Positions 9,121-46,680 of a stretch of 64,000 nucleotides of DNA are shown here, one piece after another. The notes beneath the pieces are model-generated. The model was not told the origin of the DNA. It saw only the letters and a list, made by a program, of their open reading frames with translations, and made no database searches. Within the stretch, counting starts at the first letter, position 1, and each line of letters begins with the position of its first letter. Origin of the DNA: Escherichia phage vB_EcoM-Ro157c2YLVW; the sequence record NC_050153.1; one strand, written 5' to 3'. The position numbers and the translations under genes are program-made.

Positions 9121-9697
9121 ATTGCGGGGCGACTGGCCACTCAACATCCGCTGCTACTGCTGTATCAACACGATTCAACAATACCCGATATGTCTTCCAT
9201 GCAGTCAGTAACGATGCCTCTTCCTCCGTCGCAATATCCAAATCTACGGCATCCTGAAGTGGCGCAATATGCTCACTGGCCATCTGCATCAGGCTGTTTT
9301 TTGTTTCTTCCGCCTTCCGGATCCGGAACAGTTTTTCTGCTTCTGCATCTTTCACCCAGGCTGTGCCGTTCCACTTCTGAAACTCCCCTTCCGGGGATAA
9401 CCAGGTGACATTTTCCGGTAATGGGCCAAGTTCAGAAATAAATAACGCGTCGCCGGAAGCCACGTCATAGACGGTTTTTCCCCGATGGTCTTCAACGAGA
9501 TTCCACGATGCCTCATCACTGTTGAAAACGGCCACGAAGCCAGCCGGAATATCTGGCGGGGCAATATCGGTACTGTTTGCAGGCAGACCTGTATGAGGTG
9601 GAATGTATGCATCACCTTCACCAATAAACTCATTGGTTCCGGTCAGTAGATTATAAATTTTTATGGTCCGTGATTGTTCACTCATTCTGAATGTCAT
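9119..9697 (-). CDS. tail fibre assembly protein (Tfa, U-like)
   Basis: 192-aa ORF directly downstream of the tail fibre gene (stop/start overlap); typical Tfa architecture with conserved N-terminus and variable C-terminus. Confidence 0.75.
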
Positions 9698-21309: not shown

Positions 21310-21786
21310 TCATTTTGCGCGCTTCAGGCAGCCATCTTCAGGTGCCGCGTTGAAAAGCTCTGCGGCCTTACGTAGCGTAAATGTTGCGATTTTTTTTCCG
21401 TCTACGTATGCATCGAATGTTTTAACTTCCATATCAGGGGTATCTGACCAAAAACCATACCAGTAACTATCACCCACAGAGGAACCGATAGAACTGATAG
21501 GATATTCATCATCACCAACTTTCAGCGTTATTTGTTCTTTTTTAGCATCAAATGACTCACCGCCAGGTTCTGTTTTCATGAGAGTGAGTAGTCGTGTTCC
21601 TACTTGATTGGGATCCGTATTATTAAATTCAACATCGCACTCAAATGTAAGCGTATAATTATCTTTGCTGGAAACAGCATAAGAACGAACACCATGAGTC
21701 TCGCCGGTTGACCATTTGCTTACATTTGCCATTGATGAAAACGGAGTAAGCAAAGCAATAACTAGTAAAAATCGTTTGATGCGCAT
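21310..21786 (-). CDS. secreted protein with N-terminal signal peptide (sim-region candidate)
   Basis: 158-aa ORF; MRIKRFLLVIALLTPFSSMA signal-like N-terminus. Confidence 0.5.
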   Translation of the reverse strand: MRIKRFLLVIALLTPFSSMANVSKWSTGETHGVRSYAVSSKDNYTLTFECDVEFNNTDPNQVGTRLLTLMKTEPGGESFDAKKEQITLKVGDDEYPISSIGSSVGDSYWYGFWSDTPDMEVKTFDAYVDGKKIATFTLRKAAELFNAAPEDGCLKRAK

Positions 21787-21837
21787 TAATTTATCTCCTT
21801 TGGATATTAATATTTTAATTAGTTAACCACCATATAT

Positions 21838-22485
21838 TCACCATTCATAGGGTAAATTAAGCGCTTTTAAACCTTGCTGGAAAGTATTAAGAGATCCGTT
21901 TTTTTGTTGTTCCATTTTTTCGCGTGCAGCTTTCTCATACTGCTCCATCCGTTGGTTATACTCTTGCAATTCCTCCGGGGAGAGGTTTCCCATTGGGGAG
22001 TTTGTACCCGGCCCCCTGGCCCGTTCTTCAAGCGTACCCTGAACGTTTTGATGGCGCATTCCCGGTGAGTTTCTGATTGAATCAATGCCATTTCTTCCAA
22101 CGTCTTCTTTATTAACGGCATTGCTCGCCACCAGCACACCCCAGCTAGGAATAGCAAAATCAGGAGCGGTTTCGCATGCCTTTACCATATAATCGAAAGA
22201 GCTTCGATTGATCTCGTTTGCGTCGGGATTTAACAGGCGAGAATATTGATATTTAGCATTTTCGTTGGTTGCGACTTTATACAGTTCTTGCTGCACCATC
22301 GCTTCAGAAAGTTTAAGGCGTTTCATATCTGACAGTAACTTCTTGCGCATGGATTCGTCTTGACTGACAGCAAAGCCGTAAACGTGCCCAAGGTATTTCG
22401 TATAATCGGTACAAATCTCCTTTACGCTTGATGCTGCATTAACAGTCCCAGCCATAAATAATAACGGTAGTAATAGTTTTCTCAT
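21838..22485 (-). CDS. secreted protein carrying a Sit-like motif (candidate superinfection-exclusion, sim-like)
   Basis: Start at MRKLLLPLLFMAGTVNAA (GGTGAGG RBS); segment NAVNKEDVGRNGIDSIRNSPGMRHQNVQGTLEERARGPGT matches Sit ...NAVGVNDLVNKFMNGRGMRREVVQGTLEERARGKGT. Confidence 0.55.
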   Translation of the reverse strand: MRKLLLPLLFMAGTVNAASSVKEICTDYTKYLGHVYGFAVSQDESMRKKLLSDMKRLKLSEAMVQQELYKVATNENAKYQYSRLLNPDANEINRSSFDYMVKACETAPDFAIPSWGVLVASNAVNKEDVGRNGIDSIRNSPGMRHQNVQGTLEERARGPGTNSPMGNLSPEELQEYNQRMEQYEKAAREKMEQQKNGSLNTFQQGLKALNLPYEW

Positions 22486-22581
22486 TATAACCTCACCTGC
22501 CTTATAACTCATTTAGGGTACATATTTTCGCCTTTAAAAAAAAGAGGTTATTAGATCCAGTTGTGTATTTACTAATCAGAT

Positions 22582-22598
22582 AATGCTCTAATAGATTT
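22582..22598 (+). promoter_or_regulatory. repressor operator-like site upstream of immI (AATGCTCTAATAGATTT)
   Basis: 15/17 match to the recurring ATTGCTCTAATAAATTT motif. Confidence 0.45.
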
Positions 22599-22695
22599 GT
22601 ATTTTTAAGTCGCGAATGCTATCTTTTCGCATCATATTGACCTTTTAATCGTTCAGGCTTATAGTTCCGCCGTCGTAGCAAATTCTGCGACCGGG

Positions 22696-22717
22696 TTTAG
22701 CAGCCTGAATGATTGTG
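22696..22717 (+). promoter_or_regulatory. upstream c4 target repeat (a1/b1-like)
   Basis: TTTAGCAG...GATTGTG is complementary to CACAATC and CTGCTAA in the predicted c4 RNA. Confidence 0.5.
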
Positions 22718-22785
22718 CGGACAGCCGCAGATATCCGATATTGCGGTATTTTTGTGTCCGTAAAACCGCGTTACGCCCAAATTAT

Positions 22786-22858
22786 GGTGGGGCGTGATGG
22801 GGAGGCTTCGGCCTGCTGGTTTCACAATCGCCAGTCTGCTAACCCCGTCACGTCCTGC
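22786..22858 (+). ncRNA. c4: c4-like antisense repressor RNA (immI)
   Basis: Structured segment with stem TGATGGGG/CCCCGTCA enclosing single-stranded CACAATC and CTGCTAA, complementary to repeats at 22696-22717 and 22864-22900. Confidence 0.5.
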
Positions 22859-22863
22859 CACCT

Positions 22864-22905
22864 GTTTAGCAGCGGGTAGCAGGTTGTTAAACCTGATTGT
22901 GAGGC
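22864..22905 (+). promoter_or_regulatory. downstream c4 target repeat (a2/b2-like) covering the icd RBS
   Basis: TTTAGCAGCGGG...CCTGATTGTGAGG; the GAGG at 22901-22904 is the RBS for the ATG at 22913. Confidence 0.5.
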
Positions 22906-22912
22906 CGTAACT

Positions 22913-23134
22913 ATGGTTAATGCCAATCCTTGCGCACGCCCAGAATTCATCTGGCGTTTCTATTCCTGTAAAAAACACCACTATCACTTCGTTATCGCAG
23001 CAACTGAAGACGAAGCACGCTCTCAATTGCCTGATGGCCCCTGCATTTTTACTGCCCGTTTTTCAACTGACTCGCGCAATTCACTTAGTTACTGGAGCCT
23101 CCCCTTCTCTGCCAACGTTCAGGGGGGTTTATGA
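22913..23134 (+). CDS. icd: Icd-like small protein, translationally coupled to ant
   Basis: 73-aa ORF; stop overlaps ant start (ATGA at 23131-23134). Confidence 0.6.
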   Translation: MVNANPCARPEFIWRFYSCKKHHYHFVIAATEDEARSQLPDGPCIFTARFSTDSRNSLSYWSLPFSANVQGGL

Positions 23135-24168
23135 AAACACCTCTCGTCACCCGTAATGAAATAGCCGAAGCGATCGCTTTGCATACAACCTGTATGCCGA
23201 CACGGGAGATCCCCGGCGCAATTGCCAACTATTTCATGATAACCAGACGTTTTTATACCCGAACAGATAAGGCTGTGATCAACAGGCTACTGATAGCCGA
23301 GATCAGGGATTATTTGATTGAACAAGGACGTCTACGTTACGCAACAGTGGCAGCAGAAATGAGAAAGGAGGCGCGCAGAATGACCGGTAATAATTTGAAT
23401 GTTGAAAAACCAGCACCTGTTGCTTCAGCTACGCCATCACCAGCAGTGAATGTTATCTCCAACACCGGAGACACAATCGACAGCCTGACACTGTTAAAGA
23501 TGGTCAATGAAGCGCGTAAGTTATGTGGGGAACCAGAGGTTCGGAACAACAAATTCATCGAAAAAATACTCGATGAGCTTGATGGTGAGCACTACACAAA
23601 AAGTGTAGTGGAAAAAATGAACAAAACATCAATGCTTGTCATAACCATGACTTTCAAACAAGCCCTGCGAGTCGCCGCGCGCGAGTCAAAAGCGGTCCGC
23701 CGTTCGCTGATCGACAAACTGGAAGAATTGCAGCAGGCAAACTCCCCTGCCCCATCGATCCCCCAAACATTACCAGAAGCTCTACGCCTGGCTGCCGAGT
23801 TGGCAGAACAGAAAATGCAGCTGGAACAACAGCTGGTGGCCGCAGCCCCTAAAGTCGATTTTGCCGACCGGGTATCAGTGGCTAATGGAATCCTGATCGG
23901 GAACTTTGCAAAGGTCGTTGGACTTAAGCAAAACGCCCTTTTCTCATGGTTGCGCCAGAACGGCATTCTCATGGCTTTTGGTGCGCGCAAAAACGTACCG
24001 CGCCAACAGTACATCAACGCCGGGTATTTCACGGTGAAAGAAGTGGTGCTGGATGATGAAAATGGCTACCAGATACGGCTGACGCCCCAATTAACGGGTA
24101 AAGGCCAGCAGTGGTTAACTCGCAAGCTACTTGATGCTGGTTTGTTAAAACCAGTAGCAATAGGTTAA
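23131..24168 (+). CDS. ant: antirepressor Ant (Ant1, with in-frame internal start for Ant2 at 23380)
   Basis: 345-aa ORF; C-terminal antirepressor domain shared with KilA (...LPEALRLAAELAEQK...GKGQQWL...LLDAGLL); internal ATG 23380 preceded by AAGGAGG. Confidence 0.75.
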   Translation: MKTPLVTRNEIAEAIALHTTCMPTREIPGAIANYFMITRRFYTRTDKAVINRLLIAEIRDYLIEQGRLRYATVAAEMRKEARRMTGNNLNVEKPAPVASATPSPAVNVISNTGDTIDSLTLLKMVNEARKLCGEPEVRNNKFIEKILDELDGEHYTKSVVEKMNKTSMLVITMTFKQALRVAARESKAVRRSLIDKLEELQQANSPAPSIPQTLPEALRLAAELAEQKMQLEQQLVAAAPKVDFADRVSVANGILIGNFAKVVGLKQNALFSWLRQNGILMAFGARKNVPRQQYINAGYFTVKEVVLDDENGYQIRLTPQLTGKGQQWLTRKLLDAGLLKPVAIG

Positions 24169-26303: not shown

Positions 26304-26374
26304 TACAATCGTTGCGGGTGCTTGAGGCTATCTGCTTCAGGCATTACCCGAAAAGCAGATAGAAGAAAGCCCCA

Positions 26375-26435
26375 GATAACATTACGCGTCCTGCAAGACG
26401 CTTAACATTAATCTGAGGCCACATCTATGCTTAGC
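26375..26435 (-). ncRNA. Sok-like antisense RNA candidate
   Basis: Minus-strand promoter TTGACC (26466-26471) -18 nt- TAATCT (26442-26447) directs transcription antisense across the mok start/RBS; 3' end not defined. Confidence 0.35.
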
Positions 26436-26633
26436 ATACGTAGATTAGCCTCTTACCGACCAAAAGGTCAAGGAGAAGCAGGCTATGAAGCAGCAAAAAG
26501 CGATGTTAATCGCTCTGATCGTCATCTGTTTAACCGTCATTGTGACGGCACTGGTAACGAGGAAAGACCTCTGCGAGGTACGAATCCGAACCGGCCAGAC
26601 GGAGGTCACTGTCTTCACAGCCTACGAATCTGA
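26427..26633 (+). CDS. mok: Mok-like overlapping reading frame
   Basis: 68-aa frame starting upstream of and overlapping hok in a different frame, the canonical hok/mok arrangement. Confidence 0.45.
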   Translation: MLSIRRLASYRPKGQGEAGYEAAKSDVNRSDRHLFNRHCDGTGNEERPLRGTNPNRPDGGHCLHSLRI

Positions 26634-26640
26634 AAGGTAA
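26485..26640 (+). CDS. hok: Hok/Gef-family type I membrane toxin (51 aa)
   Basis: Below the 60-aa track cutoff: MKQQKAMLIALIVICLTVIVTALVTRKDLCEVRIRTGQTEVTVFTAYESER; AGGAG RBS 9 nt upstream; matches the Hok signature (TM helix then TRKxLCE[IV]R...EVAAF.AYES). Confidence 0.8.
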   Translation: MKQQKAMLIALIVICLTVIVTALVTRKDLCEVRIRTGQTEVTVFTAYESER

Positions 26641-44425: not shown

Positions 44426-44500
44426 GATGGTGTAGCTCAGCGGTAGAGCAGTTGGCTGTTAACCAACTGGTCGGTAGTTCGAATCCACCCACCATCGCCA
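44426..44500 (+). tRNA. tRNA-Asn (anticodon GTT)
   Basis: Cloverleaf: acceptor GATGGTG/CACCATC, D-arm GCTCAGCGGTAGAGC, anticodon loop CTGTTAA, T-loop TTCGAAT, encoded CCA. Confidence 0.75.
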
Positions 44501-44505
44501 CTTTA

Positions 44506-44592
44506 GGGGAGTTAGTCCGTAGGGGTAGCGGGGTAGACTGTAAATCTACTGTCATTGCGACTCGGGTGGTTCGACTCCATCACTCCCCACCA
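44506..44592 (+). tRNA. class II tRNA-like gene with GTA anticodon (tRNA-Tyr-like), atypical D-arm
   Basis: Acceptor GGGGAGT/ACTCCCC, anticodon stem-loop GTAGA-CTGTAAA-TCTAC, long variable arm hairpin, T-loop TTCGACT, encoded CCA; D-stem only 3 bp with 4-nt spacer. Confidence 0.55.
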
Positions 44593-44596
44593 CATT

Positions 44597-44672
44597 GCCG
44601 ATTTAGCTCAGTTGGTAGAGCAGTCGCTTTGTAAGCGAATGGTCAGCGGTTCGATCCCGTTAATCGGCACCA
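44597..44672 (+). tRNA. tRNA-Thr (anticodon TGT)
   Basis: Acceptor GCCGATT/AATCGGC, D-arm GCTCAGTTGGTAGAGC, anticodon loop TTTGTAA, T-loop TTCGATC, encoded CCA. Confidence 0.75.
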
Positions 44673-46604: not shown

Positions 46605-46680
46605 GGCCCTTTAGCTCAGTGGTTAGAGCTGGCGACTCATAATCGCACGGTCACCGGTTCAAGTCCGGTAGGGGCCACCA
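46605..46680 (+). tRNA. tRNA with CAT anticodon, Ile2 (lysidine)-type by resemblance to E. coli ileX; elongator Met not excluded
   Basis: Acceptor GGCCCTT/AGGGGCC, D-arm GCTCAGTGGTTAGAGC, anticodon arm GGCGACTCATAATCGC, T-loop TTCAAGT, encoded CCA. Confidence 0.7.

Follow-up and report, generated by a model that had tools for sequence, protein, structure and literature searches.

C4, a small RNA found in phages P1 and P7, prevents the phage antirepressor from being made. Immunity in P1 and P7 operates by blocking the translation of icd, with Rho-dependent termination as the next step; in P4, immunity operates through premature transcription termination. Differences at the specificity sites are the classical basis of P1/P7 heteroimmunity, and P51b is a constitutive promoter in P1. 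The GenBank records of P1 and P7 give a2 and b2 as sites where C4 binds to repress translation of icd-ant, while a1 and b1 are labelled as 'putative' target sites in the P1 record. Structural homology has been stated between IsrK and seqA and between C4 and the CI RNA of phage P4, with similar systems in P1, P7 and N15 (Barquist et al. 2013, PMC3632133), and a likeness of the leader before c4 to IsrK is therefore not new.

We examined 64,000 nucleotides of Escherichia phage vB_EcoM-Ro157c2YLVW (sequence record NC_050153.1), referred to here as the window. Positions 22582-23134 of the window almost certainly form the regulatory part at the front of an immI immunity operon, in a P1-like phage-plasmid with P7 specificity. 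The C4 module within it is genuine and complete, yet ordinary: it is the known antisense-RNA switch of phages P1 and P7. The transcription unit runs in the order a1/b1, the c4 gene, a2/b2, icd and ant1/ant2, and its features are as follows.

22582-22598, plus strand: C1 repressor operator Op51 (Oc4), AATGCTCTAATAGATTT, placed by alignment to the P1 protein_bind feature 'monovalent C1-controlled operator Oc4'.
22597-22625, plus strand: promoter P51a (P2c4), TTGTAT-17-TATCTT, from the P1 annotation; the window is identical to P1 here.
22637-22665, plus strand: promoter P51b (P1c4), TTGACC-17-TATAGT, from a consensus scan (10 of 12 matches) that coincides with the P1 annotation.
22659-22711, plus strand: c4-a1b1 leader element with two hairpins, Rfam RF03163 (55.5 bits against a gathering score of 46.7, E = 2.7e-11).
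22697-22703, plus strand: a1 target TTAGCAG, P7 type, from a heptamer search and alignment to P1 and P7.
22711-22717, plus strand: b1 target GATTGTG, P7 type, from the same search and alignment.
22724-22754, plus strand: terminator-like hairpin GCCGCAG...UUGCGGU followed by AUUUUUG, at the end of the IsrK-like leader, from the isrK model alignment and folding; its function is putative.
22786-22862, plus strand: mature C4 antisense RNA, 77 nt (GGUGGGGCG...CCUGCCACC), identical in sequence to P7, with ends transferred from the P1 and P7 misc_RNA features.
22822-22829, plus strand: b' recognition element UCACAAUC (DNA TCACAATC; heptamer CACAATC at 22823-22829), in the loop of C4 hairpin 2.
22836-22842, plus strand: a' recognition element CUGCUAA, in a 7-nt single-stranded joint.
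22866-22872, plus strand: a2 target TTAGCAG in the icd leader, annotated in P1 as 'repression of icd ant translation'.
22895-22902, plus strand: b2 target GATTGTGA, an 8-mer (GATTGTG at 22895-22901), from the P1 annotation.
22913-23134, plus strand: icd, 73 aa, an inhibitor of cell division that is also the upstream partner in ant translation, from the open reading frame list; annotated as icd in P1, P7 and RCS47.
23131-24168, plus strand: ant1 antirepressor, 345 aa, from the open reading frame list, with a Pfam ANT/KilAC domain (E = 1.3e-30).
23380-24168, plus strand: ant2, from an in-frame internal start (AAGGAGG at 23365-23371, ATG at 23380), transferred from the P1 and P7 ant2 coding sequences.

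The Rfam model for C4 antisense RNA (RF01695) matched positions 22780-22865 on the plus strand over its full length (model positions 1-87) at 69.6 bits, above the gathering score of 45. The match lies upstream of icd and the antirepressor gene on the same strand. Folding of 22780-22865 gave a stable structure of -45.4 kcal/mol (z = -5.1), and none of 200 shuffled sequences was as stable. For the C4 segment, the minimum-free-energy fold was the same as the centroid, indicating one dominant structure: a long closing stem with two internal hairpins and two exposed recognition elements. The 77-nt sequence equals the annotated P7 RNA, the 3' GCCACC included. Two other Rfam models gave hits over the C4 region, mir-1231 at 20.6 bits and the bacterial small SRP RNA at 18.2 bits; both were far under threshold and were discarded as chance.

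An earlier note on this DNA had described two repeats sharing TTAGCAG and GATTGTG, with the exact complements CACAATC and CTGCTAA lying in loops of a structured segment between them. Both repeats are present, with the heptamers starting at 22697 and 22711 in the first and at 22866 and 22895 in the second, and both complements were found between them at 22823-22829 and 22836-22842. Their placement in loops was half right. The b' element occupies eight of the nine nucleotides of the hairpin 2 loop, but a' forms the entire unpaired joint leading from hairpin 2 to the closing stem and is in no hairpin loop. The note had also placed the downstream repeat over the icd ribosome-binding site. The Shine-Dalgarno sequence GAGG (22901-22904) lies 8 nt 5' of the icd ATG (22913), and b2 does overlap it; the overlap takes in the first two bases of GAGG and not the whole site.

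Within the same transcript, 7 exact pairs match a' to a2 and 8 match b' to b2, the two targets lying at the ribosome-binding site of the gene that follows. Whole-molecule duplex predictions that paired C4 with the leader or with the 5' region of icd returned full-length duplexes without meaning, because these predictions ignore internal structure. Short-site energies were used instead, and gave -7.4, -6.7 and -8.6 kcal/mol. The single heptamers are unremarkable, occurring 3-6 times on each strand of the 64 kb, where about 4 occurrences are expected. The ordered series a1-b1-b'-a'-a2-b2 did not arise in any of 100,000 shuffles of the 250-nt region, and a scan of both strands of the 64-kb window found this arrangement at this locus alone.

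The reading frames of icd, ant1 and ant2 are intact. Icd is 95% identical to P7 Icd, and a Pfam search of Icd returned no family match. The icd stop and ant1 start overlap in the sequence ATGA (23131-23134). Ant1 is 89% identical to its P7 counterpart, with a divergent central block. A consensus terminator scan matched once, at 22940-22954 inside icd, which is at chance level.

The annotated immI operons of P1 and P7 both align colinearly with the interval, with a1, b1, c4, a2, b2, icd and ant1/ant2 in correspondence. Positions 22666-22915 (250 nt) are 100% identical to P7 (AF503408), so that neither C4 nor any of the elements a1, b1, a', b', a2 and b2 differs between the two, and the gene order c4-icd-ant is also shared. 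From 22584 onward, the window is 97.7% identical to P7 and 98.5% identical to RCS47. P1 (AF234172) has the same architecture and identical P51a and P51b promoters, and the P51b stretch is identical in P7 as well. Identity to P1 is 95.3% over the full 22500-23200, and P1 differs by two bases in each of the six specificity sites (TTGACAG and GTTAGTG in P1 versus TTAGCAG and GATTGTG in the window). All six specificity sites of the window are of P7 type and not of P1 type. The resemblance to P7 ends at the left edge: left of 22584 the window follows P1, and its operator starts with AAT, as in P1, versus TCT in P7.

The module is ordinary because it is P7-type and base for base the same as the studied C4 system, and since the window sequence is the same as that of P7 there is nothing new in the finding. 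The C4-icd-ant feature is already known and common. In PLSDB, 600 plasmid records matched the interval, and at least 11 plasmids from E. coli and Klebsiella, about 91-99 kb in size, carry the exact 553 bp of 22582-23134 at 100% identity. For the window itself the result is of little consequence, as this is a textbook regulatory RNA that is widespread in E. coli phage-plasmids.

Our account of how the module would work draws on published P1 and P7 work (Citron and Schuster 1990; Biere et al. 1992; Riedel et al. 1993; Hartmann et al. 1995), on later summaries and on GenBank notes. By analogy, in a lysogen the operon would be transcribed constitutively from P51b, with C1 as a second lock that would repress P51a at the operator. 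C4 would be released from the precursor, RNase P generating its 5' end, and would block icd translation by pairing with a2 and b2. Translation of ant would be coupled to that of icd, and untranslated icd RNA would be open to Rho-dependent termination; as a result, no antirepressor would be made, the C1 repressor would stay active and the prophage would be silent. Processing, repression and translational coupling are presumed for the window, as carried over from P1 and P7. From the identity with P7, we infer that C4 would repress antirepressor synthesis and set immI specificity. P7-type heptamers predict repression of the ant of a superinfecting P7 and not that of P1, and the element is expected to show immI immunity towards P7 and heteroimmunity towards P1. 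The practical value of the analysis lies in the annotation and in the predicted assignment of the element to the immI immunity group of P7.

To see whether relatives lose the complementarity without compensation, 87 related loci were collected through Icd, together with P1, P7, RCS47 and D6. The loci (L001-L091) came from these four genomes and from IMG/VR and GTDB contigs and were compared over the region equivalent to 22666-22915; the covariation alignment held 28 distinct sequences. Variation among these 28 was concentrated at the specificity sites. For a'/a2 and b'/b2 together, 100% of cells were paired and 8 pairs had changed on both sides; when the partner was slid by 1-3 columns, the number fell to 0-1. 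The same values were obtained for a1/a' and b1/b': 100% of cells paired, 8 pairs changed on both sides, and 0-1 after sliding by 1-3 columns. Taken singly, b'/b2 was 100% paired in the 28 sequences with compensatory changes in 6 of 8 pairs, b'/b1 showed changes on both sides in 6 of 7 pairs, and a1 covaried with a' in all 28 sequences. The 28 internal pairs of C4 were standard in every one of the 28 sequences and almost invariant, so the helices themselves provide no independent covariation evidence. Complementarity was thus not lost in relatives, since compensatory changes kept the pairing in every distinct sequence. Together with the Rfam match and the colinearity with the annotated P1 and P7 immI operons, these changes support the RNA-repressor architecture that the earlier note had proposed.

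The related loci carried eight combinations of two a-types (TTAGCAG and TTGACAG) and five b-types (GATTGTG, GTTAGTG, ACTTACG, ACGAATG and ACTTGTG). The a and b modules reassort independently, with the P7 a-type joined to the P1 b-type in 8 loci and the P1 a-type joined to the P7 b-type in 11. A search of the literature for earlier tabulations of c4 specificities gave no usable match. The natural combinations, at least eight among P1-like elements, in which C4 and both target sets change together, offer a clean natural case of specificity switching by an RNA regulator, and the catalogue of specificities could help in designing orthogonal antisense pairs.

In 86 of the 87 loci, all three copies of an element agreed. 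The exception, L032 (positions 1-239; IMGVR_UViG_2565956613_000015, a 4.9-kb contig), was the sole locus in which C4 mismatches its own downstream target: b1/b' is ACGAATG/CATTCGT and b2 is GTTAGTG. L032 is explained either by natural recombination between a2 and b2, in which case poor repression is predicted, or by a chimeric assembly.

A divergent icd lineage (L008-L010) showed the same architecture with quite different elements, for example GTCTCAA and CCTTTGAC. Its Icd is 81-83% identical to that of the window, and its C4 scored 75-77 bits. Complements of the C4 elements lie upstream and, for b2, on the icd Shine-Dalgarno sequence AAGGAGG, and the element upstream of C4 passes the isrK gathering score at 53.8-62.4 bits. 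L008, L009 and L010 are Escherichia contigs and a metagenome bin whose genomes also carry a P1-type module. Both the isrK-C4-icd module and the P1-type module are present on one 83-kb contig, NZ_PTRE01000134, and one genome can therefore hold two C4 specificities.

The upstream targets a1 and b1 lie in the leader. The score for the c4-a1b1 family is above threshold, with a1 (UUUAGCAG) inside the loop of the second hairpin. The isrK model (RF01394) aligned with the leader over its whole length, the terminator stem included, at 22672-22753; its score of 43.7 bits (E = 4.3e-08) is below the gathering score of 50. On this alignment the leader is judged to be related to isrK and is not filed as an isrK member. 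The terminator-like hairpin stretch is nearly unchanged across the 28 relatives; the consensus terminator scan missed it because its loop exceeds 8 nt.

Like the window leader, IsrK of the Salmonella Gifsy-1 prophage has a pair of hairpins at its 5' end and then a terminator hairpin with a U-run behind it. It also stands at the head of an operon with an antirepressor-like gene at the end, coupled to a small upstream ORF (PMC4825925). The two differ in the terminator loop, which is 12 nt in the window versus 3 in IsrK, and in their described roles, IsrK being a trans-acting activator (Hershko-Shalev et al. 2016, PMC4825925). That study does not mention P1 or C4 RNA. The P4 CI RNA (seqA/seqC) and the N15 CB RNA, set beside the window from their descriptions, are likewise small RNAs processed from the leader of their own operon, have complementary targets both upstream and downstream, and control lytic or anti-immunity genes.

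An anti-terminator switch was considered as a general mechanism for the leader and was dropped. Folding of the free window leader gave a 5-bp hairpin (22716-22720/22725-22729) that occupies the 5' arm of the terminator-like hairpin, and with a1/b1 blocked the terminator formed. The leaders of P1 and of the divergent loci L009 and L010 formed the terminator whether a1/b1 were blocked or not, and the model was abandoned for this reason.

We tentatively consider another reading, which is possible but less likely than not. The leader, from the P51b start to the U-run (about 22672-22754), may be an IsrK/seqA-type element at which some transcripts stop and release an RNA of about 80 nt carrying a1/b1; this RNA, or the nascent sites, might bind C4 and serve as a sponge or as read-through feedback. 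If true, this would give a1/b1 a function, as a C4 sponge or in feedback on read-through into c4-icd-ant. The alternative that a1/b1 are an inert duplicate of the real target, with no function of their own, agrees with their 'putative' status in the P1 record and with a published model that needs only a2/b2 for icd repression. It is nonetheless unlikely, given that a1/b1 track the changes in a'/b' as strictly as a2/b2 do, with 100% pairing and 8 compensatory pairs. They also lie within a conserved structured element that has its own Rfam family and is homologous to the IsrK sRNA, and to P4 seqA according to Barquist et al. 2013 (PMC3632133), and the upstream copy is kept in divergent lineages as well.

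The operator raises a separate question, whether the module is a sequence-intact relic that controls nothing here, either because C1 control at the operator was lost or because the phage-plasmid is defective. Position 13 of Op51 (22594) is G in the window (AATGCTCTAATAGATTT), whereas each of the 82 related loci in which the anchor is present has A; this G is the Op51 difference from P1 and is private to the window in comparison with P7 also. The operator 3' end is overlapped by P51a, and the G may weaken C1 control of that promoter. This substitution is what speaks for a relic. Against it, P51a and P51b match P1 exactly, the C4 RNA and its four target sites show no difference from P7, and icd, ant1 and ant2 are intact. 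The same 553 bp, the G included, stand unchanged in the 11 or more PLSDB plasmids that share the interval. In addition, C4 repression in P1 works through constitutive P51b, independently of the operator. A relic is therefore very improbable: the operator substitution is the only blemish of the module, and the C4 circuit is untouched by the operator change.

That c4 might instead encode a small repressor protein, with the repeats as protein-binding sites, has next to no likelihood: 56-aa (22709-22879) and 38-aa (22794-22910) ORFs are present and the early P1 GenBank record X15639 still has 'c4: CDS', but the covariance model matches C4 RNA, and protein coding is excluded because the variation in the 28 relatives sits in the three heptamer copies and is compensatory in the manner of base pairs, not codon-like. 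Citron and Schuster reportedly showed in 1990 that the repressor is RNA, which also counts against a protein.

Several other features of the window were recorded. Directly left of the operator, on the minus strand (21310-22512), the P1 sim genes have been replaced, and the cargo found there is neither the upf50 genes of P7 nor the sim genes of P1. Left of the operator only 22346-22575 matches P1, in the simA region. From a simA-like start, an ORF continues for 224 aa without SimC similarity, and a 158-aa ORF is next to it; the remainder of 21310-22512 had no match in the phage collection. P7 carries still other genes left of the operator, which makes this a hot spot for cargo.

A hok/sok toxin-antitoxin locus is present just downstream of repL (26316-26640, plus strand), identified by Rfam sok at 114.8 bits and by a 51-aa ORF with a Pfam Hok/Gef domain. 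Among the matches listed, the full hok/sok stretch was seen in four P1-like phage records only (e.g. phi456, MH422554), and the P1 and P7 reference genomes were absent from these matches. A full-length match to Rfam IS009 was found at 9156-9354 on the minus strand (192.7 bits), and four tRNA genes were found on the plus strand at 44426-44497, 44506-44589, 44597-44669 and 46605-46677.
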